Shown here one piece after another: positions 4,546 through 58,132 of a DNA stretch of 64,000 bases; within the stretch, counting starts at the first letter, position 1; the number at the start of each line of letters is the position of its first letter. The stretch is from Escherichia phage vB_EcoM_EP57. Both the position numbers and the translations under genes were made by a program. The stretch lies in sequence record OR544956. One strand, 5' to 3'. The notes under the pieces are model-generated. The model was not told where the DNA came from. It made no database searches and worked only from the letters and a program-made list of their open reading frames with translations.

Positions 4546-5109
4546 ATGGGTTGTTTTAGCTTTTTGTGCAAAGAATCGGGCAAAGCTGCCCTTTCTACTT
4601 CTTTCGACGGATCACCTTGCTACCTCTTTCTTTTGAAGGACGGTGTTGTTATTGAAGAGATGTATGGCAACTATGATAGTTATGGTTGTGTTTTCTCTGG
4701 AAAGGAGGATGAAAACGGCGTTCGTGAACGATTTGAATGGGCTATGGATTGGGGTAAGGTTTGTGATTTGATGCATTCCTCAAATCCAAGGGACGGTATC
4801 GCTATGGTGCTGGAAGAGTACTTTACAGGTGAAATCCCTACAGAACAATCTGACGGAGATCCTAACCAAGGTTGGGGTGATGGTGAAGAAGATCCAGATT
4901 GTTTTTTCAGCACAGAAAAGAATAAGTTTAAACGTGTTGACAACCCTTATCACAAAGTGCATAATACTCTCATTGAAACAGAAGATGACAAGATGGAAAT
5001 TGAAGAAGATGATCCTCTTGTAACACTTCCTGTAAGTGAGTTACAAAAGATCACTAAGGAAGCTTACGATTTGGGCTTCAAAATTGGTAGAGGAGGTATG
5101 CGTGTTTAG
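4546..5109 (+). CDS. Hypothetical acidic protein
   Basis: ORF track; ggagggtttgtaATG context. Confidence 0.35.
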   Translation: MGCFSFLCKESGKAALSTSFDGSPCYLFLLKDGVVIEEMYGNYDSYGCVFSGKEDENGVRERFEWAMDWGKVCDLMHSSNPRDGIAMVLEEYFTGEIPTEQSDGDPNQGWGDGEEDPDCFFSTEKNKFKRVDNPYHKVHNTLIETEDDKMEIEEDDPLVTLPVSELQKITKEAYDLGFKIGRGGMRV

Positions 5110-27591: not shown

Positions 27592-27933
27592 TTACACTCC
27601 ATACTCGTAAGAAATGTTATCAAGGTCAAAAGAAGGGACAACATTATAAGCAGGAACTATATTATTCTCTGTATATTTACTGTCATCCTCAGTATTAAGT
27701 TTAACATAAACACGAAGAGAAGTCAAGCGTCCAAAAGCAAGTGCTGCATAAATAACCCCTTTGATTTGATCGTTCGTTACTGAAGAACCTAATTCAAAGT
27801 AAGCTTGCAGGTTTTGTAAAGCTTCTACGATGTTTTGTTTTTCTGTTCCACTTAAAGTTGTTCCGTTGACAGTTTGATAAACAAGTTTTACAGAATACAT
27901 AGCAGAAGCACCTTTCTTCAGCACTCCCTCCAT
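27592..27933 (-). CDS. C-terminal segment of the baseplate J-like protein (different frame from 27794..28969)
   Basis: Overlaps 27794..27933 with the upstream ORF, whose last ~40 residues look out-of-frame. Confidence 0.35.
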   Translation of the reverse strand: MEGVLKKGASAMYSVKLVYQTVNGTTLSGTEKQNIVEALQNLQAYFELGSSVTNDQIKGVIYAALAFGRLTSLRVYVKLNTEDDSKYTENNIVPAYNVVPSFDLDNISYEYGV

Positions 27934-48257: not shown

Positions 48258-48286
48258 AGTCTACAGGATATTTGTTGTTTTGTCAA
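48258..48286 (-). promoter_or_regulatory. Promoter on the minus strand with CTATTGACAA -35 context (TTGACA-17-TAGACT)
   Basis: Same extended -35 motif as the three promoters in the tRNA locus. Confidence 0.4.
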
Positions 48287-48314
48287 TAGAAAAATTAAAA
48301 AATATTAAATATTT

Positions 48315-49981: not shown

Positions 49982-52057
49982 TTATCTTTTACGGACACTA
50001 TACGGTTGGTGAAATCCGCTGTTCATTCTACTGTATCCTGTAGGAGCATTTGTTGTTGTAGGGATAGCTACTGCTTTGAAAGTATTCTCTTTTGACAGAG
50101 TATTAAAACAAGAGGCAGCAGCATCGGGAATGTCATCTTTAATAGTGGCTGTAGATCTTTCACCATTGAAAGATTCCAATTCTTTATAAAAGTGGGTTAA
50201 AGTCTCCACATTAGGGAAAGAATCTTCAACAATATAAACAAAACCGTTTTGACACGCACTACTAAAAGGCATGAAACGCTGAAGCTTTTTCTTGTTACCT
50301 GGCATAGCATCTGGTTTAACAACAAAACCCTCTAGAATAAGTTTCTTTGCAGACTCTGTGTATTCTATTGTCCCAGCACCAGATGGGTCTTTAGGAAGCA
50401 CTACTGTAACTTCTGGTCCATCAATCTTACATTGATTTAGAATCAGGTTATCCCTTTCCCCAGGTAGTCTTCGAAACCTTCCGAAAATTTTACTTTTCTC
50501 ATCCACAGCATCATAATCATAGTCGCCAAAGATGTAGATATTACCATCTTGGTCTTTACCCATTTTGACAGATGTTGTATAGTCTGGATAACGGTAAGTT
50601 TCTGTAGGAACTGAAACAGCTTTATCCCATGCTCGCATTAGTTTAAGATTGTTAGGAACATCTTTATAAGATATTTTATGTAACCATTCACGTTGAAAGA
50701 AAGATTCTTTCTGGATACGTGCAAACCAACAACCGTCCAGAAGCTGTGCTCTTTTGATCGCTGTTTGTGATTTAAGCTGTGCTAAGTAATTAGGGTTAAG
50801 CCTAATGAGTTCTGGGTTATCAAATATTGTCCCACCAATAAATACGAAAGTTTGTGGTTCAATAACAACTGTCTCCCCTGTATTAGGGTTTTCCATGAAA
50901 CAGTTTTCTGGATATTTTTCTTTCAGTTCTTCAGGTGTGTCAGCAAAAACAGGTTCATCGTTAACAATGATGAAATATTTTTGTTTACCACACATATCTT
51001 CTCTAGGATAACCACCCTCATCAAGATAAGGTAACACCCAATTCAAAACCCAACTATCTGCGTCAGGGTTACATGTGCACAACATGAAACTTGTTTCTGA
51101 CTCTGAACGCATACGTCCCAGAAGATAGAGCATTTCATATTGTGTGAAGTGGGTTAACTCGTCAAAACCTACCATTGAATACTGTGTACCCTGATGGTTT
51201 GTTTCTGCTGTTACGTTATCATTTTCCAAATGGTCAAATTTGAGGGTTCCGCCACCAGTGGCTTCAAAAATGATATCCATTGTACTTTCTTTTACGTGTG
51301 GTTGTAAAGGAAGATACAAACGTTTTGCTTCTGTAAACAGACCACCTGGTTTACGGTGAGCAGTGGTGTTCTTACGGAAAAGTATTCCACCAAACAAAGG
51401 GTCTTTGTAGGCGTATTTTAAAGCTTTCAGCAATAGCAGACGAGACTTGCCGCTATTCCCAGTAACGAAGCAGTGATCGCCACGTCTAAAGACAATATAG
51501 CTGCTTGGAGTCTCAAAACAATATTTCTTATCATCTGTTGAAATAACCTCGTGTATTTTTAAGTAAGTGCTCTTTTTACCAGGTATGTTAAAAGGAACAC
51601 GTTTACCGAATGGATTTTCTACATAACCTTGCAGGGGTTTTCCTATTTGCTGTAATGCAATAAGATCTCCTACAAGAATCTCGAAATGTTTCTTTGATTT
51701 CTTTTTCTTATAGAATACAAAACGGTGTTCCATACTAAGTTCTTGGAATAATCCTACACCATTTGTTATTCTGTATAGGTTATCTCCATTTAAATCGTAT
51801 TCTACAAAATAAGGTGTTACCAATTCTAAACGCTTATTCTTAGGATTGTATTGGTAAATATCCTCTCCCGAATATTCACTAATCTGCCTCCAACCATCTT
51901 TTGTAAGATATTCCGTTTCAGCAGAAACACATCCAGCGGCACCACCATAAATCATAACCTCTGGCATTAAATCCATTGCAAGAGTCTGTTTACCTGGTTG
52001 AGCCTTTACTTCAATATCTACTCCAGCTAAACTACCTGCTGCCTTTTTCTTTGCCAC
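49982..52057 (-). CDS. Terminase large subunit, intein-containing
   Basis: Walker A split as GGAAG / SGKS by an insertion; C-terminal nuclease region; 691 aa including a 159-aa intein. Confidence 0.8.
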   Translation of the reverse strand: MAKKKAAGSLAGVDIEVKAQPGKQTLAMDLMPEVMIYGGAAGCVSAETEYLTKDGWRQISEYSGEDIYQYNPKNKRLELVTPYFVEYDLNGDNLYRITNGVGLFQELSMEHRFVFYKKKKSKKHFEILVGDLIALQQIGKPLQGYVENPFGKRVPFNIPGKKSTYLKIHEVISTDDKKYCFETPSSYIVFRRGDHCFVTGNSGKSRLLLLKALKYAYKDPLFGGILFRKNTTAHRKPGGLFTEAKRLYLPLQPHVKESTMDIIFEATGGGTLKFDHLENDNVTAETNHQGTQYSMVGFDELTHFTQYEMLYLLGRMRSESETSFMLCTCNPDADSWVLNWVLPYLDEGGYPREDMCGKQKYFIIVNDEPVFADTPEELKEKYPENCFMENPNTGETVVIEPQTFVFIGGTIFDNPELIRLNPNYLAQLKSQTAIKRAQLLDGCWFARIQKESFFQREWLHKISYKDVPNNLKLMRAWDKAVSVPTETYRYPDYTTSVKMGKDQDGNIYIFGDYDYDAVDEKSKIFGRFRRLPGERDNLILNQCKIDGPEVTVVLPKDPSGAGTIEYTESAKKLILEGFVVKPDAMPGNKKKLQRFMPFSSACQNGFVYIVEDSFPNVETLTHFYKELESFNGERSTATIKDDIPDAAASCFNTLSKENTFKAVAIPTTTNAPTGYSRMNSGFHQPYSVRKR
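51455..51931 (-). other. Mini-intein (Hint domain without homing endonuclease) inserted in the terminase P-loop
   Basis: Begins with Cys (CVSAETEYL) right after GGAAG and ends ...DHCFVTGN followed by SGKS; removing it restores a GGAAGSGKS-type P-loop. Confidence 0.6.
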
Positions 52058-52060
52058 TCC

Positions 52061-52405
52061 TTATTCAGCAATAATACCTTTTTCTTGCAGTGTTTTAATA
52101 TATGTTTGTAAACCTAGAACCTTTCGTCTATCTTGCTCCCAAAGAGCATTGTTTTGAGTTTGGTTGTTAACAACTTCAGATCTACTAACCCCTTTTGCAA
52201 TTTGATTTTTAGTGTATGGCACAGGTGTCGATACTTTATCCATCAAGTCCGAATCTGGACCTTTAACCTTTTCTATGGCTACAGCCTTACACTCATCAAT
52301 AAGAACTGGGGAAACTTTTGTTGATGATGAACAACCCGTCATCATTAGGGGCAAAGCAAGACATACTGCCAGAATTAGTTTTTGCATAATTCGTTGTATC
52401 CTCAT
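52061..52405 (-). CDS. Outer-membrane spanin (o-spanin, Rz1-like lipoprotein)
   Basis: Lipobox LMMTGC; overlaps the 3' end of the i-spanin gene in another frame. Confidence 0.45.
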   Translation of the reverse strand: MRIQRIMQKLILAVCLALPLMMTGCSSSTKVSPVLIDECKAVAIEKVKGPDSDLMDKVSTPVPYTKNQIAKGVSRSEVVNNQTQNNALWEQDRRKVLGLQTYIKTLQEKGIIAE

Positions 52406-52688
52406 TGATCGTTTGTTTCTTCTTCTCTAAATCTGCTTTTAATTGTGCATTGTTTTTAGACAAGTTGTTTATTTGAGTATTTAATAATGCTCTTTCTTCA
52501 TCTGCTCTTTTTTGAAGAACATCAAAATCTTGTTTTGCTTTTGCTTGGGCTGCTTGATATACTTGCGTTTGATAGGCAACACCATCTTTGTAGCCAGACT
52601 CACGTATCTTGTTATAAGCAAACATTCCGGCAAGAATAAGAACAACAATTAAAACAAAACTTAATACAGTTTTAGTCTTTAGATTCAT
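52296..52688 (-). CDS. Inner-membrane spanin (i-spanin, Rz-like)
   Basis: N-terminal TM (VLSFVLIVVLILAGMFAY) followed by coiled-coil. Confidence 0.5.
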   Translation of the reverse strand: MNLKTKTVLSFVLIVVLILAGMFAYNKIRESGYKDGVAYQTQVYQAAQAKAKQDFDVLQKRADEERALLNTQINNLSKNNAQLKADLEKKKQTINEDTTNYAKTNSGSMSCFAPNDDGLFIINKSFPSSY

Positions 52689-52738
52689 TATCTTCTACTT
52701 CCTCATAAAATTTTATTTTAGGAAGAGAAGGGGCGTTG

Positions 52739-52909
52739 TTAACTATCTTCTTCACTTCCATTGGTTGAGCCTCCGCTAGGATCTCTTCCCAAGTCTTCTC
52801 TGTCATCATAAAGTTCTTCCTCCAAGTTCCAAGCCCGTGTGTAATCATTCTTTTTATCTTTATGATAAGAAGAACGGTTAAAATCATTTTTAACTACAAA
52901 ATTGCGCAT
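52739..52909 (-). CDS. Small acidic protein (56 aa) with strong ribosome-binding site; overlaps track ORF 52672..52887 in another frame
   Basis: gaggagga then ATG at 52909; reads MRNFVVKNDFNRSSYHKDKK... Confidence 0.3.
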   Translation of the reverse strand: MRNFVVKNDFNRSSYHKDKKNDYTRAWNLEEELYDDREDLGRDPSGGSTNGSEEDS

Positions 52910-52930
52910 ATTTTATCCTCCTCATATCTG

Positions 52931-52960
52931 ATCTTATCACAAAATGATATATAATTGCAA
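52931..52960 (-). promoter_or_regulatory. Sigma70-like promoter on the minus strand (TTGCAA-18-TAAGAT)
   Basis: Upstream of the small gene and spanin/terminase block. Confidence 0.4.
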
Positions 52961-52964
52961 GCAT

Positions 52965-53002
52965 TAAAAATAAAAAAGCCCCTAACCTTTCGGAGAGGGG
53001 TG
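52965..53002 (-). terminator. Intrinsic terminator (second of a tandem pair) on the minus strand
   Basis: CCCCUCUCC-GAAA-GGUUAGGGG then CUUUUUUAUUUUU; a first hairpin GGGGCUUUGCCCC lies at 53021-53034. Confidence 0.45.
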
Positions 53003-53049
53003 TTAAAAATAACAAGGAGGAGGGGCAAAGCCCCAAGAGAGGAGAGGGA

Positions 53050-53346
53050 TTAGATTACGATCTTTTTAGGAACGTCATCTGTATTCTGCACGGCAGGGGT
53101 TTCTTCTTCCATAGCTTCATAATGTTCTTCTAACCATTCTTCTACTTGCTCTTTAATAGCTTTAGCTGCTTGGAAGCGGAGAGGTTTTGCTGCATCCTTA
53201 TCATTAACAAGTTCAACAATATACCGCATAGCTTCTAAATAATGCTCTGCAAATAATTCTTTTACACTTGCTTGCGCCGCATCCATTGCGTAAATCTGTT
53301 GCATTTCGGCTGTTGGTCTTCCACGACCACGTTTTAGTTTAGGCAT
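53050..53346 (-). CDS. Small DNA-binding protein with AT-hook-like KRGRGRP motif (terminase small subunit candidate)
   Basis: 98 aa; its own promoter and tandem terminators. Confidence 0.3.
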   Translation of the reverse strand: MPKLKRGRGRPTAEMQQIYAMDAAQASVKELFAEHYLEAMRYIVELVNDKDAAKPLRFQAAKAIKEQVEEWLEEHYEAMEEETPAVQNTDDVPKKIVI

Positions 53347-53367
53347 AATAAAATCCTCCTAAACTTT

Positions 53368-53396
53368 ATCTTAACATATAAAAAATAATAAGTCAA
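53368..53396 (-). promoter_or_regulatory. Sigma70-like promoter on the minus strand (TTGACT-17-TAAGAT)
   Basis: Followed by AGGAGG and the ATG of 53050..53346. Confidence 0.45.
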
Positions 53397-53553
53397 GTTT
53401 TATTCAATAGATAGCAAAAAGCCTCCAATAAGGAGGCTAATAAATACTGTTAAGTTGAAATGCTTTATTATAATTGTGCGTTAAGGAGTCGCACCCCTCC
53501 ATCTTAGAAGGAACCAGGCAAGGTCTTCAAAGATACCGCTGGCAAGCGATATT

Positions 53554-53632
53554 TGGAGGCGGGAATTGGATTTGAACCAATGATCTCCAGCATATGAAAC
53601 TGGCGAGGACGACCAGACTCCTCTATCCCGCT
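53554..53632 (-). tRNA. tRNA with anticodon CAT (Met or Ile2)
   Basis: Manual fold: T-arm ATTGG-TTCAAAT-CCAAT, anticodon loop TTCATAT, CCA encoded; 1-72 is an A-C mismatch. Confidence 0.55.
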
Positions 53633-53638
53633 ATTATG

Positions 53639-53708
53639 TATCCCGTGCTGGATTCGAACCAGCATCACAATAAGCTGTGGAACTCTTATCCTGTAAGTCT
53701 AACGGGAA
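53639..53708 (-). tRNA. tRNA-like element, unassigned (anticodon arm cannot be folded; possibly degenerate)
   Basis: Good T-arm GCTGG-TTCGAAT-CCAGC and acceptor pairing, but only about 70 nt. Confidence 0.3.
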
Positions 53709-53710
53709 AC

Positions 53711-53784
53711 TGGTTGTTTCGACAAGAATCGAACTTGTGTCTCACGATTATCAGTCGTGGGTTCTACCATTGAACTACGAAACA
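53711..53784 (-). tRNA. tRNA-Ile (anticodon GAT)
   Basis: Perfect acceptor, T-arm and anticodon stem; loop CTGATAA; CCA encoded. Confidence 0.7.
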
Positions 53785-53790
53785 TTAAAT

Positions 53791-53867
53791 TGGTCGGAAT
53801 TGCAGGATTCGAACCTGCGACCCTACGCTCCCAAAGCGTATGCTCTACCAAACTGAGCTAAATTCCG
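53791..53867 (-). tRNA. tRNA-Pro (anticodon TGG)
   Basis: Perfect cloverleaf; anticodon loop TTTGGGA; CCA encoded. Confidence 0.7.
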
Positions 53868-53960
53868 TCATAACATTCTAAAGGTACACCGCAAAAGAAA
53901 GTGTTCGGCGGCTCCTCGTTTTTAACTTCACACTTGAGGTAGTGACTCACCTTTGTTATA

Positions 53961-54036
53961 TGGCTGGTCTGTCTGGATTTGAACCAAACCTACGACAGTC
54001 AAAGTGTCGTGTGCTACCGGACTACACTACAAACCA
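53961..54036 (-). tRNA. tRNA-Gln (anticodon TTG)
   Basis: Cloverleaf with anticodon loop CTTTGAC; CCA encoded. Confidence 0.65.
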
Positions 54037-54134
54037 ATAAATCATTTAATGAAGGGCAACCAGAAGAGGTGTGAGAGAAGGAGAAAACCATGAGTAAAAG
54101 AGAAAGTTTTCTGGCAACCCTTTATTAAATAATT

Positions 54135-54208
54135 TGGAGCGTTCTACGAGGATCGAACTCGTGCCGCCGACTTGGAAGGACGGAATGCTACCGCTACACC
54201 AAGAACGC
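54135..54208 (-). tRNA. tRNA-Gly (anticodon TCC)
   Basis: Acceptor GCGTTCT/AGAACGC, anticodon loop CTTCCAA; one mismatch in the anticodon stem. Confidence 0.55.
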
Positions 54209-54219
54209 CCTACATCTTT

Positions 54220-54249
54220 ACTATACTACATTTTACTATTGGTTGTCAA
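54220..54249 (-). promoter_or_regulatory. tRNA-operon promoter 1 (CTATTGACAA-18-TATAGT)
   Basis: Minus strand; -10 ends about 11 nt before the tRNA-Gly 5' end. Confidence 0.55.
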
Positions 54250-54524
54250 TAGTTTTATTGAGTGGGACAGTGACGAGTATCCCGTTGGGTGACTAGCCCT
54301 ACGTTCGGTAAGCTAACTTAAAATAATACAAAACCAAAGTCAAATATTATTCTTCGTTGCTGTCGATGGGAGAGCCGCTTCTCATTTTGCCCCATCCAAC
54401 CCTACTCCGGTCAAGTTTCGGGTAACTCTTTTTGTGTGATCAACACAATACTAAGAACACTGTCTTTCGAACAGACCTTGTGCACAGGATACGACGATCA
54501 ATCACAGTGCTCTTAATGTTGTGT

Positions 54525-54599
54525 TGGTGCTCCCACACTGAATCGAACAGAGATCCACGGATTACAAAACCGTTGTAATAGCCATTATACTATAGGAGC
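54525..54599 (-). tRNA. tRNA-Thr (anticodon TGT)
   Basis: Anticodon loop TTTGTAA; minor stem mismatches. Confidence 0.5.
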
Positions 54600-54605
54600 A
54601 AAGCT

Positions 54606-54682
54606 GGGACTCGGCAGGATTCGATACCTGCAATTCCAGAAGCCTCTTGGCGACTGGGGGTTTACCTTAACTCTACAAGTCC
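54606..54682 (-). tRNA. tRNA-like element, unassigned (T-arm near-identical to tRNA-Pro but with an 8-nt loop; no foldable anticodon arm)
   Basis: gcaggattcgatacctgc versus gcaggattcgaacctgc in tRNA-Pro. Confidence 0.3.
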
Positions 54683-54689
54683 ATAATTC

Positions 54690-54775
54690 TGGCGATGAGT
54701 ATAGGATTTGAACCTATATCGTTCTTTCGAACACGGATTAACAGTCCGCCGCTTAAACCATTCAGCCAACTCATC
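54690..54775 (-). tRNA. Class II (long variable arm) tRNA with anticodon GTT
   Basis: Perfect acceptor GATGAGT/ACTCATC, T-arm ATAGG-TTCAAAT-CCTAT, extra arm GTTC-GAAA-GAAC, anticodon loop CTGTTAA. Confidence 0.45.
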
Positions 54776-54781
54776 TTAATT

Positions 54782-54869
54782 TGGTGGTGAGTGATGGAGT
54801 TGAACCACCCGAATCGCAATGATAACAGATTTACAGTCTGCCCCGCTACCCCTACGGAATTAACTCACC
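54782..54869 (-). tRNA. tRNA-Tyr (anticodon GTA), class II
   Basis: Anticodon arm CAGA-CTGTAAA-TCTG as in E. coli tRNA-Tyr; 88 nt. Confidence 0.6.
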
Positions 54870-54947
54870 TAAATACTAATATTTAAATTCTTTTTAAAAT
54901 AGCCAGTGTTCACACCACTAACTATGTAAGCCATATTAAAAAGAACT

Positions 54948-55033
54948 TGGCGGTAGATGTAGGACTCGAACCTACACGCCGTTTCCGACTACAGTTTAGC
55001 AAACTGTCGTGGCTACCATTTCACCAATCTACC
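54948..55033 (-). tRNA. tRNA-Ser (anticodon GCT), class II
   Basis: Anticodon arm ACAGT-TTGCTAA-ACTGT; long variable arm. Confidence 0.65.
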
Positions 55034-55038
55034 TAATC

Positions 55039-55129
55039 TGGCGGAAGGAGGGAGAGTCGAACTCCCAAGGCTCTTTCAAGCTCGGCGGTTTTCAAGACCG
55101 TTTTCGTCGCCACGTCGATTTGCCCTTCC
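55039..55129 (-). tRNA. tRNA-Ser (anticodon TGA), class II
   Basis: Anticodon loop CTTGAAA; long variable arm; 91 nt. Confidence 0.55.
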
Positions 55130-55137
55130 ATACTTAT

Positions 55138-55167
55138 AATCTAACATAAAATAATGTTTGTTGTCAA
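55138..55167 (-). promoter_or_regulatory. tRNA-operon promoter 2 (CTATTGACAA-18-TAGATT)
   Basis: Minus strand; -10 ends about 9 nt before the tRNA-Ser(TGA) 5' end. Confidence 0.5.
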
Positions 55168-55363
55168 TAGTTTTTTAAAACATTTTACCATGAATGGTGA
55201 CTCCACCAACCCCCGTTCTCCACGAACGGTGCTCTTCGAGCATTTATGTCTTCTAATATAACCGTGGCCTTTGTTTATAATGTCTGACATACTTGCCTCA
55301 TTCTCTGCCACCATGATCAGTAGTGGGTTCAAATTACTTGAGCTAATTCATGTTAAAATGTTC

Positions 55364-55438
55364 TGGTGTCTTTACAAGGAATCGAACCTTGACTAAGAGT
55401 TTAGAAGACTCCTGTGCTATCCATTACACCATAAAGAC
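55364..55438 (-). tRNA. tRNA-Arg (anticodon TCT)
   Basis: Anticodon loop CTTCTAA; acceptor GTCTTTA/TAAAGAC. Confidence 0.6.
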
Positions 55439-55440
55439 GT

Positions 55441-55515
55441 TGGTGGCCCTGGCTGGTTTCGATCCAGCTACCTATCGGTTATGAGCCGACAGCTCTCCCA
55501 TTGAGCTACAGGGCC
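55441..55515 (-). tRNA. tRNA with anticodon CAT (Met or Ile2), second copy
   Basis: Acceptor GGCCCTG/CAGGGCC, D-stem GCTC/GAGC, anticodon loop CTCATAA. Confidence 0.6.
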
Positions 55516-55519
55516 ATAA

Positions 55520-55713
55520 ATGTGGTAACAGAGACGCTGACGATTGTAGAGAACCGCTACATTCTCTAAGACCAAGCCCAACTTTCAGCGTAAAAGTTCT
55601 TGAGCCGAGACTGTTCCTTTTCCTCTTTGGTAGCTAACCTCTGAAGAAGTAGTCTCTAACACTACCGCAGTGCAAGCCCCTCTTAACAAAAGTCAACGAC
55701 ACTGTTACCACAC
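55520..55713 (-). ncRNA. Candidate structured small RNA (about 190 nt) closed by a perfect 10-bp terminal stem, first transcript unit behind promoter 3
   Basis: Plus 55522-55531 gtggtaacag is the exact reverse complement of plus 55702-55711; lies between a promoter and the first tRNA; no ORF. Confidence 0.35.
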
Positions 55714-55724
55714 TTGATGAACGT

Positions 55725-55754
55725 ATCCTAACATATGAAGGATACGTTTGTCAA
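55725..55754 (-). promoter_or_regulatory. tRNA-locus promoter 3 (CTATTGACAA-18-TAGGAT)
   Basis: Minus strand, directly downstream of the 55762..56010 stop. Confidence 0.5.
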
Positions 55755-55761
55755 TAGTTAT

Positions 55762-56010
55762 TTAAGCATATTCTGCTACTTCTTCACTATCTTTCTTTTC
55801 CAGAAGAGCAACAACCAAAGCTTCTGCGTTAAAAGTATTAATTTCAAGATCCATCTCTCGCATCAGAGCCAAGAAATCAATAACTTTAACATCTTTAGTG
55901 ATTACAATAGAAGTTGTACCATTGTTTTCAGATGTGTATTTTTCTGGATGGAAAAGAAAAACTGCATTGCCGTTACCATCTTCAAACACGTGTTTTTCTA
56001 ATAGAGACAT
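55762..56010 (-). CDS. Hypothetical protein
   Basis: Strong ribosome-binding site tAGGAGGaacaATG. Confidence 0.45.
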   Translation of the reverse strand: MSLLEKHVFEDGNGNAVFLFHPEKYTSENNGTTSIVITKDVKVIDFLALMREMDLEINTFNAEALVVALLEKKDSEEVAEYA

Positions 56011-56018
56011 TGTTCCTC

Positions 56019-56270
56019 CTAATCTGTTAGTTGTTCGTCCTCTACCAAGTTTGACACGAGAACGTCTGTTATATATTGATGCTGATAAACCCTTTCGGGA
56101 CTATCATCAAAAGCCAAACCTGTGCAAATAGAACAGAGGTCTGATTCCTTGATGACTCCATTTTTATCACGTCTGGAGTGGTTTGTCAAATGCCTATTAC
56201 AAGCACGGCACCTAAAATAAAAGCTATTTTGCATATATCCTTCGAACCCCAAATGGGGAGTGATCGGCAT
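56019..56270 (-). CDS. Small Cys-rich protein
   Basis: CRACN ... CSIC. Confidence 0.35.
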   Translation of the reverse strand: MPITPHLGFEGYMQNSFYFRCRACNRHLTNHSRRDKNGVIKESDLCSICTGLAFDDSPERVYQHQYITDVLVSNLVEDEQLTD

Positions 56271-56307
56271 CTCCTCACTTCTAGTTTAGCACGAAGGATA
56301 TCTTAAG

Positions 56308-56505
56308 TCAACTAGGAATAATTTTATCCCTTTTGGTTTCATAACCAGTCCAATCTAAATCCTCCCAGCCTTCATCATCGTCTAACACATTGTCATCATC
56401 ATAAGATGCAATGTTATAAATAGAACGTGGATTACAAGACATACAATCTTTAATAGGCACATGATGCCATTTGCACGGATTCTCACTAATCATTGCACAC
56501 CTCAT
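56308..56505 (-). CDS. Small Cys-containing acidic protein
   Basis: ORF track. Confidence 0.3.
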   Translation of the reverse strand: MRCAMISENPCKWHHVPIKDCMSCNPRSIYNIASYDDDNVLDDDEGWEDLDWTGYETKRDKIIPS

Positions 56506-56514
56506 CTATAGATC

Positions 56515-56700
56515 AAGTATTATTTATAATAATTTATTATTTTATTTTTAATTGATAGAAGTTGATCTGTACGTACCAGTTCTGATACACTGTACCTGTT
56601 TGTTAGATCTAATAATTATTTATTATTAATATTTAATAATTATTAATCTAGTACGGAGTACAGTACTTGAGTACAGAGTACTACATCAACGACCTAAAAC
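56515..56700. repeat. AT-rich repeat region at the switch between divergent gene blocks (candidate origin or divergent promoter region)
   Basis: Direct repeat TAATAATTATT at 56601 and 56626, imperfect palindrome around 56596-56650, and clustered GTACAG/GTACGG repeats at 56650-56690. Confidence 0.35.
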
Positions 56701-56915
56701 CTTAACTCGCTGCGCTCGTTAATAGATTTCTAGGGTAACATACTTCGAACACAAAAGTCAAGAGTTTTATTAAAAATTATTTTCTGTGTGCAAAAACCTT
56801 GCTTAAACAGGTAGCAATAGTATTAAGAGGCTGTAGAGCAAGTTTACTTACTAGGTAAGGTGATTTATCATCTTATATATAAAAAGTGCGTCAGAGACGC
56901 GTTTAGGAGGCTAGA

Positions 56916-57332
56916 ATGAGATTTACAAGACAAGAGGTAGTTGTACTTGACGAAGCAATGACAATGATCGTCTTTTACTATGAGGATATCTTCTGTGCAG
57001 CATATCATTTAAATGATATTCAGATTGAATGGAAGCAGATAGCATTCCTGTTGGACAAGAGTAATCATTTGGATGGCTTTGAGTATTTGGAGTGGGATGG
57101 TGCAAAGGAAGTTAAAATTGTAGGGTTAAATCACGATCAGATTGTTGACATGCAATGTAAGTTGTGTCATTATCAGTTCTCAAACAATCCTGGCAACAAT
57201 TGTTCTGATTTTTGCCATGTGTGTGGTTCACGATGTTCTGGTAAGCTACTTTTGAAGACACAAGATGTGTCCTACAGCCGTGTTACGCTTACTGGCGACC
57301 ATACCCCAATCATGGAGTACGTAAAGAAATGA
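56916..57332 (+). CDS. Cys-rich hypothetical protein
   Basis: CKLCHY ... CHVCGSRC; taggaggctagaATG. Confidence 0.4.
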   Translation: MRFTRQEVVVLDEAMTMIVFYYEDIFCAAYHLNDIQIEWKQIAFLLDKSNHLDGFEYLEWDGAKEVKIVGLNHDQIVDMQCKLCHYQFSNNPGNNCSDFCHVCGSRCSGKLLLKTQDVSYSRVTLTGDHTPIMEYVKK

Positions 57333-58132
57333 GCAACTATCCAATTACAGGCGTAACCTATTCTTGTGTAGCAAAAGGTGGTTTATATACAGTAGTGGAA
57401 TTTCCAAAACCTGCCGGAATATCTAAAGTGTTTGATCCTGTGGTTATCTATGAAGATCTTAGAACAGGTCAACGTTACTGGAGATTTGTGAATGACTTTT
57501 TAGATCGTATGGAGGTAGTAAGTGGCGAAAACACCGAAGAAGTTATCAAAGCCAACGTTACTAAGAAACCGAAAAACGAGGTTCTCAAAGTAGCCAAATC
57601 AGTTCCTAAGAAAGATAAATTTGATACGGAGGCATTCGTCTTTGACACACCAATCGAGAAGATTGAAGAAGCGTTGCAACGTCTTGAGGAGCAGGAGGCA
57701 GATCCAATGGCTGAACCACTCGCTGAAGCAAAAAACATTGGTCGTTCCAATGAAACAACACCAGAAGAACAAGCTGAACTTGAAGCTTTTGCCAAATGGA
57801 CAAAACAGTTAAAGAATGGCTATTATAAAACAAAAGAAGAAGCTGAAAACCATGTTCCTTCCACACCAATGAAATGCCAGGATTATAAAGATTATCCTGA
57901 AAGGGTTGTGTTCCCTGGTTATGCACAATACAAACTGAACGGGTTACGTTCTATGATTAACATGAAAGGAGAGTGTTTATCAAAAGCTGGGGAAGTGTAC
58001 AACCTGCCACCTCATTGGAAAGGTATTCCAAACTTTATTAGTGAAGTTGTTGGTCATCCTCTTGATGGTGAAGTGTTTGCTGGGTTAGGTGTCCTTAGTC
58101 TGCAACAAATTAACAGTGCTTGCAGTAGTTGA
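57329..58132 (+). CDS. ATP-dependent DNA ligase-like protein, N-terminal and adenylation part; frame changes near 58090-58130
   Basis: Motif I-like YKLNGLR (KxDG-type with N in place of D) and motif III-like LDGEVFA. Confidence 0.45.
   Translation: MSNYPITGVTYSCVAKGGLYTVVEFPKPAGISKVFDPVVIYEDLRTGQRYWRFVNDFLDRMEVVSGENTEEVIKANVTKKPKNEVLKVAKSVPKKDKFDTEAFVFDTPIEKIEEALQRLEEQEADPMAEPLAEAKNIGRSNETTPEEQAELEAFAKWTKQLKNGYYKTKEEAENHVPSTPMKCQDYKDYPERVVFPGYAQYKLNGLRSMINMKGECLSKAGEVYNLPPHWKGIPNFISEVVGHPLDGEVFAGLGVLSLQQINSACSS

Follow-up and report, generated by a model that had tools for sequence, protein, structure and literature searches.

The closest described counterparts of the transfer RNA (tRNA) cluster analysed here, which lies on the minus strand of a stretch of 64 000 nucleotides (nt) from Escherichia phage vB_EcoM_EP57 (record OR544956; this whole stretch is called the window), are those of the Phapecoctavirus phages ASO2A (MZ726793) and nieznany (MN850598), which resemble it at 99.2-99.7% identity. 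The ASO2A record contains annotations for all 12 of these tRNAs, with identical anticodons, and for a terminator, and that of nieznany misses the Tyr and Ser-TGA genes; unlike the present analysis, neither record includes a promoter or a spacer RNA. In the related phage rV5, promoters of the σ70 consensus, some of them with an extended −10 element, have been predicted throughout the genome, as predictions only (PMC3606486). An array of tRNA genes behind σ70 promoters is already known and ordinary, the same 12 tRNAs being annotated in GenBank relatives. The interest of the locus lies in its unannotated structured RNAs and in a tRNA-Asn with a long extra arm, rather than in the tRNA array itself.

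We interpret the region, with a probability of roughly 0.8, as the tRNA operon or cluster of a phAPEC8-like phage, comprising 12 tRNA genes and two tRNA look-alikes and equipped with three promoters. The 2.8 kb around the array are 99.7% identical to Escherichia phages nieznany and tuntematon and 98-99% identical to dozens of further Phapecoctavirus genomes, and by sequence the window belongs to Phapecoctavirus (phAPEC8-like E. coli myophages, Stephanstirmvirinae). Small early-type open reading frames (ORFs) lie upstream of the array, which is followed on the same strand by a small ORF, the spanins, the large terminase, the portal and head genes. The order of the array genes is kept across the subfamily, and about half of its 2.3 kb encodes neither tRNA nor protein. 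Related loci were fetched via TerL (8 loci); labels such as L002 or L003 denote the related loci compared, L048 being DT57C.

ARAGORN detected 10 minus-strand tRNAs in 53554-55515 (anticodons CAT twice, GAT, TGG, TTG, TCC, TGT, GTT, GCT and TCT), and the Rfam tRNA model placed 11 at or above its gathering score, adding Tyr-GTA at 54785-54869 (39 bits for a gathering score of 29). Ser-TGA was recovered at 55043-55129 by the tRNA-Sec model only (37.4 bits for a gathering score of 47), a weak score that we attribute to its odd D-arm region. Both Tyr-GTA and Ser-TGA are included in the tRNAscan-SE annotation of phage ASO2A, whose sequence at these genes is 100% identical, and both are called by ARAGORN in orthologous clusters. 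In all 12 genes, an anticodon can be read from a 7-nt loop and the 3′ CCA is encoded, and we classify them as predicted canonical bacterial-type tRNA genes. They are listed in the order of transcription; unless otherwise indicated, each was called by ARAGORN and Rfam and is annotated in ASO2A.

55441-55515, minus strand: tRNA with anticodon CAT, 75 nt (ARAGORN, Rfam; tRNA-Ile-CAT of the lysidine type according to tRNAscan-SE in ASO2A)
55364-55438, minus strand: tRNA-Arg(TCT)
55039-55129, minus strand: tRNA-Ser(TGA), 91 nt, atypical D-arm region and extra arm with a GAAA loop (tRNAscan-SE in ASO2A, ARAGORN in orthologues)
54948-55033, minus strand: tRNA-Ser(GCT)
54782-54869, minus strand: tRNA-Tyr(GTA), class II (Rfam tRNA model, annotated in ASO2A)
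54690-54775, minus strand: tRNA-Asn(GTT), 86 nt, long extra arm (62 bits with Rfam)
54525-54599, minus strand: tRNA-Thr(TGT)
54135-54208, minus strand: tRNA-Gly(TCC)
53961-54036, minus strand: tRNA-Gln(TTG)
53791-53867, minus strand: tRNA-Pro(TGG)
53711-53784, minus strand: tRNA-Ile(GAT)
53554-53632, minus strand: tRNA-Met(CAT), 79 nt, long D arm

The Justusliebigvirus copy of tRNA-Met(CAT) is 97% identical and one record names it tRNA-fMet; read by eye, the gene carries an A1·C72 mismatch and U73. A first-pass annotation of the window had announced about 14 minus-strand tRNA genes. The co-oriented array is real, with a count of 12, and the 11 anticodons listed there (CAT twice, GAT, TGG, TTG, TCC, TGT, GTA, GCT, TGA and TCT) are all recovered by ARAGORN, Rfam and the tRNAscan-SE annotation of ASO2A, most of them by ARAGORN run on the minus strand. 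Among its three "atypical elements", one is presumably the genuine tRNA-Asn(GTT) with its long extra arm. The other two, here called S4 (a tetraloop on an extended hairpin, no CCA) and S8 (a 6-nt loop, no CCA), were called by neither ARAGORN nor Rfam; lacking both the 7-nt anticodon loop and CCA, they are tRNA-like and are therefore not counted as tRNAs.

Bacterial class II tRNAs are normally only those for Leu, Ser, Tyr and Sec. The tRNA-Asn(GTT) of the window has the class II shape: an extra arm of 4 bp with a GAAA cap separates its anticodon arm from its T arm, and the molecule ends in G73 and CCA. Genes of the same type are present in several related loci (L006, 3742-3826; L012, 3292-3376; L016, 426-508; L051, 3124-3206; L053, 5592-5678), and covariation of the extra arm extends over Stephanstirmvirinae, some of the T5-like phages and further large phage contigs. 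The window has GTTC/GAAC as the stem of this arm, Justusliebigvirus-like loci have GAAC/GTTC or GAGA/TCTC, T5-like loci GTC/GAC or GTTC/GGAC and a 173-kb contig GAGG/CCTC, and the GAAA cap is constant across lineages. This covariation supports a base-paired extra arm, and a recurrent tRNA-Asn with such an arm departs from the usual bacterial class II rule. The GUU anticodon and G73 are identity elements for the asparaginyl-tRNA synthetase of E. coli; the Asn identity of the molecule is a prediction, G73 combined with a long arm being also Ser-like. A recent origin of the gene as a paralogue of the adjacent Tyr and Ser genes is unsupported, since the identity of long-arm tRNA-Asn genes is 72-76% among themselves across lineages, versus 55-72% to the Tyr and Ser genes. 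No description of a long-arm phage tRNA-Asn was found in the literature searched.

Directly 3′ of the long-arm tRNA-Asn, in the window as in L005, L006, L008 and T5-like loci, lies the first of the two look-alikes.

54606-54682, minus strand: S4, tRNA-shaped RNA without an anticodon loop, with the 8-nt T-loop TATCGAAT; RNA3 homologue

S4 is composed of a 7-bp acceptor stem, a conserved TAGAGTTAAGGTAAACC segment, a long hairpin replacing the anticodon arm and a T arm with the 8-nt loop. Between Phapecoctavirus and Justusliebigvirus it is 98-99% identical, whereas the adjacent Asn gene is only 76% identical, and it is found at ≥95% identity in 87 phage records; no annotation of it was present in 50 records among the matches listed. 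The same architecture was detected in more than 350 T5-like phages by a pattern scan of IMG/VR combined with BLAST, and the record of one of them, DT57C, labels such an element RNA3, a "putative stable RNA with unknown functions". Three IMG/VR pattern matches (L019, L033 and L040) have no acceptor or T arm and were dropped as chance. A covariance model built from T5-like sequences only recognizes S4 with 38.1 bits (E ~4e-9) and the variant of L008 with 44.1 bits, and nhmmer relates RNA3 to S4 with E = 0.0015. In the acceptor and T stems, 99.3% of the positions are paired and 7 of 11 pairs show compensatory changes, against at most 46% pairing in slid controls; from T5-like siphoviruses to these myoviruses, compensatory changes occur in three helices. 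These comparisons identify S4 as a true homologue of the T5-type RNA3, and it is probably a functional member of this family of conserved stable RNAs.

In the lineage of phages related to phiWec181/190 (L003, 2013-2141; L004, 2407-2535; L007, ~4860-4990), the tRNA-Asn is replaced by a segment with a 129-nt annotated ORF, and S4 is retained after it with 98% identity. In DT57C (L048, 2400-2503), the gene ahead of RNA3 is chimeric and unannotated in the record: its 3′ half matches the long-arm tRNA-Asn, its anticodon loop carries GTA (Tyr), and it lacks the 5′ acceptor strand.

The second look-alike and the remaining spacers of the array are the following.

55516-55724, minus strand: S1, 209-nt structured leader from promoter P1 to the first tRNA, with a 22-bp terminal helix
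55171-55363, minus strand: S2, 193-nt structured spacer with paired ends
54870-54947, minus strand: S3, remnant of a conserved multi-hairpin RNA of 122-170 nt
54253-54524, minus strand: S5, 272-nt spacer with a long 5′ hairpin (z = −2.2)
54037-54134, minus strand: S6, long hairpin with a strongly covarying stem of 12-14 bp and a conserved pyrimidine-rich loop …CTCATGGTTTTCTCCTTC (z = −5.6)
53868-53960, minus strand: S7, 93-nt spacer with no significant structure (z = 0.0)
53637-53708, minus strand: S8, with a 6-bp acceptor stem, a D arm, a canonical T arm GCTGGTTCGAATCCAGC and a 6-nt "anticodon" loop, no CCA
53439-53553, minus strand: S9, 3′ trailer containing hairpins, with a conservation of 90-92% between genera

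The leader S1 has a minimum free energy of −72.3 (z = −4.3). Among four distinct sequences about 20% diverged, 97.9% of cells are paired in its fold, against 41-46% in slid controls, and 9 of 70 pairs are compensatory; the 22-bp closing helix is invariant and the inner helices covary. No minus-strand ORF of 40 amino acids or more was found in S1, which may serve as a processing site of the RNase III type or persist as a stable 5′ leader RNA. S2 is likewise structured (z = −4.2), with two compensatory pairs in the consensus fold; the coding of a peptide by its 63-amino-acid ORF with a TTG start was ruled out, two 1-nt indels between clades breaking the frame. S3 is a natural deletion variant in the window, missing ~52 nt (two internal hairpins) present in its nearest relatives, e.g., L002 (2171-2300), and carried by both ASO2A and nieznany; it is otherwise conserved in Phapecoctavirus and Justusliebigvirus, and its closing stem and inner hairpin covary across the two genera (6 of 39 pairs compensatory). 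The 3′ part of S5 is conserved in Justusliebigvirus-like loci (BLAST to L011 and L012). In S6, the stem has been rewritten in four lineages and the loop of ~30 nt (…CUCAUGGUUUUCUCCUUC, anti-Shine-Dalgarno-like) has remained constant. The complement of this loop (plus strand, 54077-54094) corresponds to a perfect ribosome-binding site (RBS) and ATG; a micro-ORF opposite the loop was rejected, the length and sequence of the peptide being unconserved and G·U pairs favouring a minus-strand RNA. A search for targets of the loop yielded no convincing complementary RBS elsewhere in the window.

S8 differs from the other look-alike: it is found only in Phapecoctavirus, varies among relatives precisely in the "anticodon" loop, which a 1-nt deletion reduces to 5 nt in L004, and matches the RNA3 covariance model weakly (24 bits). 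It is most likely a decayed or decaying tRNA. Rfam, used permissively on 52000-57500 and with gathering scores on the whole window, found only tRNAs; weak matches to RyhB, YrlA, IS009 and ycf2 were discarded, falling far below the gathering scores and lying on the terminator or on tRNAs. Taken together, at least five spacers (S1, S2, S3, S4 and S6) appear to be structured and conserved; compensatory changes support S1, S3, S4 and S6 strongly and S2 only thinly. These conserved structured spacer RNAs are unannotated in the relatives examined.

The array is punctuated by repeats of the exact 10-mer CTATTGACAA, which occurs four times in the window, always on the minus strand (at 48280, 54243, 55161 and 55748); in shuffled sequence, the mean was 0.22 and none of 100 shuffles reached four. 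Each copy belongs to a promoter or promoter-like site, and the single terminator lies beyond the array.

55725-55757, minus strand: promoter P1, CTATTGACAA, 18-nt spacer and TGn-extended −10 TAGGAT, just past the stop codon of ORF 55762-56010
55138-55170, minus strand: promoter P2, CTATTGACAA, 18-nt spacer and TGn-extended −10 TAGATT
54220-54252, minus strand: promoter P3, CTATTGACAA, 18-nt spacer and TATAGT, matching 11 of 12 consensus positions
48258-48289, minus strand: fourth promoter-like CTATTGACAA site, between the portal gene and a head-protease-like gene
53420-53438, minus strand: intrinsic terminator, AGCCTCC-TTATT-GGAGGCT then TTTTT; ASO2A has an annotated terminator at the corresponding position

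The first-pass annotation had placed three near-identical promoters at 54220-54249, 55138-55167 and 55725-55754, with a fourth copy in the head module at 48258-48286. All three spans are exact, each reading TTGACA, 18 nt and TAnnnT, the fourth copy was found between the portal and head-protease-like genes, and the motif search over the window returned these four places and no other. P1-P3 combine an A-rich upstream flank, TTGACAA at −35 and an 18-nt spacer, with extended TGn −10 regions reading ATGTTAGGAT in P1 and ATGTTAGATT in P2, and match 10-11 of the 12 σ70 consensus positions. The distance between the −10 element and the tRNA 5′ end, previously given as 9-11 nt for two of them, was close to the measured values of 11 nt from P3 to tRNA-Gly (54208) and 8 nt from P2 to Ser-TGA (55129). 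P1 adjoins no tRNA, the S1 leader coming next.

Pattern counts over the window point in the same direction. TTGACA-N16-19-TAnnnT occurs 19 times for 5.2 expected, and 15 of these 19 sites are oriented as the local genes (strand blocks read by eye). TTGACW-N14-16-TGTTARRNT occurs four times for 0.06 expected, on the minus strand only, one occurrence being the promoter of the next gene (53368-53396). Two minus-strand extended −10 promoters of the form TTGACT…ATGTTAARNT were noticed besides, that at 53368-53396, directly past the array terminator, and one at 27698-27726. The signature of the promoters of this phage looks like a shared −10 motif rather than the CTA extension of the −35 element.

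Comparative conservation is the best evidence for promoter function. In phiWec181/190 (~80% identical here) and in Justusliebigvirus, promoters open the array and precede Ser-TGA and Gly (L003-L006), and the position of P1 is kept in L003 and L004, where it reads GTATTGACAA...GTTAAGAT. At −35, the same promoters of these diverged relatives carry GTATTGACAA, GTGTTGACAA, TACTTGACAA or CTCTTGACAA, with CTA replaced by GTA, GTG, TAC or CTC; TTGACAA and the TGn-extended −10, (A)TGTTAGAT, are constant, and the spacer and flanks change. The division of the co-oriented array by three near-identical promoters is thereby supported, and we predict that P1-P3 are σ70-type promoters, judging their activity from consensus, enrichment and positional conservation. 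The CTA "extended −35", also proposed as a promoter feature, is not conserved in diverged relatives; on this comparison, it is a clade-specific coincidence or a homogenised copy and not a functional element.

The site at 53420-53438 is the only convincing minus-strand terminator-like site, the remaining matches of the terminator scan falling inside tRNAs; there being no terminator between the promoters, P2 and P3 would therefore be internal promoters of a read-through unit. Host σ70 RNA polymerase would start from three strong promoters, at ~55718 (P1), ~55131 (P2) and ~54213 (P3), and run to this single terminator, P2 and P3 acting as internal boosters of the read-through transcript. By analogy with the known maturation of tRNA operons, host RNase P and 3′ processing enzymes would cut the precursor into 12 CCA-ending tRNAs, and the same cuts would free the structured spacer RNAs between them. 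The codon fractions of the 56 window ORFs suggest one use for these tRNAs: AGA, ATA, ACA, CCA, GGA and CAA reach 0.18, 0.17, 0.41, 0.37, 0.24 and 0.70, for approximate E. coli fractions of 0.04, 0.07, 0.13, 0.19, 0.11 and 0.35 in the same order. The shifted codons fit the Arg-TCT, CAT (Ile2-type), Thr-TGT, Pro-TGG, Gly-TCC and Gln-TTG genes, which would add decoding capacity for codons (AGA, AUA, ACA, CCA, GGA and CAA) much more frequent in this AT-rich phage than in E. coli. The tRNAs possibly also replace host tRNAs destroyed by anticodon nucleases.

Several points weigh against the reading of the region as a tRNA operon with three promoters of its own. The 18-nt spacers exceed the optimum by 1 nt, and the −10 hexamers of P1 and P2 match at only four of six positions, a shortfall that the TGn extension may offset. 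Variants of CTATTGACAA with one mismatch show no enrichment (11 for 7.6 expected). Read-through from upstream promoters (e.g., 56311) could leave P1-P3 partly redundant, and a literature search on transcription starts in Phapecoctavirus gave no relevant result. The Ser, Tyr, Asn, Ile-GAT and Met tRNAs correspond to no shift in codon usage; these five tRNA types being without a codon rationale, codon compensation is therefore not the whole story. In another reading, the CTATTGACAA repeats are copies spread by duplication or gene conversion rather than independent promoters, the array being read through from upstream early promoters. P1, P2 and P3 share the 12-mer AACTATTGACAA unchanged in this clade alone, which points to a recent homogenisation; the sub-units of the array have no terminators between them, and TTGACT promoters lie upstream at 56311 and 56189. 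We nevertheless hold this reading to be very improbable: the −35 and extended −10 elements are preserved at all three places in diverged relatives with altered spacers and flanks, a pattern of selection on promoter function, and the predicted starts at P2 and P3 fall 2-5 nt ahead of mature tRNA 5′ ends. It is likewise unlikely, if less so, that the non-tRNA spacers, S4 and S8 included, are junk, i.e., decayed tRNA genes and processing spacers without a function of their own. The variation of S8 exactly in its "anticodon" loop and its restriction to Phapecoctavirus, the lack of a structure signal in S7, the toleration of a 52-nt deletion in S3 and the lack of Rfam matches for the spacers would all agree with this reading; for S4, however, the conservation from T5-like siphoviruses to these myoviruses involves compensatory changes in three helices, the helices of S1, S3 and S6 are kept by such changes across at least 20% divergence, and S6 combines a constant loop with a rewritten stem.

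A further possibility, which we regard as doubtful and which overlaps the tRNA operon favoured here, is that the array is mainly a counter-defence cassette, in which nuclease-resistant Thr-UGU, Asn-GUU and Tyr-GUA replace cut host tRNAs, S4 acts as a decoy or inhibitor and the Asn extra arm shields the cut site. Tyr, Asn, S4 and Thr form one uninterrupted block (54525-54869), to which Justusliebigvirus adds Lys-TTT. According to one report, the PARIS effector AriB cuts the E. coli tRNAs Lys(UUU), Thr(UGU) and Asn(GUU), and infection is rescued by the T5 versions of all three (PMC12409363); phage tRNAs evading tRNA-targeting defences are documented as well (PMC10264068, PMC11555353). The tRNAs of the Tyr/Asn block have no codon-usage rationale, and the conservation of S4 between genera far exceeds that of its Asn neighbour. 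On the other side, the phage Asn and Thr retain UAAUC|C around the reported cut site, the window has no Lys tRNA, and the sole annotation of S4/RNA3 refers to "unknown functions". The published rescue used the T5 tRNA-Asn, and in a T5-sized contig this tRNA is normal, with 78 nt; the rescue therefore does not bear on the long-arm form. A counter-defence role of the Tyr-Asn-S4-Thr block, overlapping the PARIS targets, is a plausible hypothesis. It is a more speculative step, and an improbable one at present, to see the whole cluster as an RNA-based counter-defence locus in which S4 would be a decoy or inhibitor of tRNA-targeting nucleases, the extra arm of a phage-wide, class-II-shaped tRNA-Asn(GUU) would allow escape from cleavage next to positions 40/41, and S1, S2, S3 and S6 would be further regulatory or anti-defence RNAs. 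If true, this would assign a function to the T4- and T5-type "stable RNAs of unknown function"; given that phage tRNAs counter PARIS and retron nucleases, the RNAs of the array are concrete candidates for counter-defence at the RNA level.

Downstream of the array, the large terminase (49982-52057, minus strand) contains ~160 amino acids inserted within its Walker A motif, at residues ~43-202 (…YGGAAG | C…GN | SGKS…). The insert looks intein-like by its position and termini; Pfam and PDB sequence searches with it found nothing, and the Pfam terminase domain begins only at residue 202.

Compared with known systems, the promoters of the window share with those predicted in rV5 (PMC3606486) the TTGACA −35 element, the TGn and TAnnnT of the −10 region, the A-rich upstream flank and a genome-wide use; the predicted promoters of the window differ in being three copies with a 12-mer identical within the clade and an 18-nt spacer. 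The cluster of phage T4 is likewise a co-oriented tRNA array with small stable RNAs, rnaC and rnaD (species 1 and 2), of which rnaC has a tRNA-like T arm; it differs by its 8 tRNAs and by a homing endonuclease gene inside the array. The likeness to T4 is one of layout only: nhmmer gave no match at E ≤10 between rnaC or rnaD and the window or related clusters, BLAST revealed no similarity either, and the RNA3 covariance model found nothing in the T4 region. Among T5-like phages, the tRNA array of DT57C (KM979354) is likewise interleaved with small structured RNAs (RNA3, RNAI, RNAIII and RNA2H). By nhmmer and BLAST, S1, S2, S3, S5 and S6 have no similarity to the T5-like RNAI, RNAIII and RNA2H; a literature search on T5 stable RNAs gave no relevant result. 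The T5-like RNA3 ends in an encoded ACCA, which S4 of the window lacks, and the central hairpin of S4 is longer (9+9 nt with an internal loop). In T5-like loci such as Shin27, the RNA3 homologue comes immediately after a long-arm tRNA-Asn, the same arrangement as that of S4 in the window, and it is through S4 that these myoviruses are linked to the long-unexplained RNA3 of T5-like siphoviruses.

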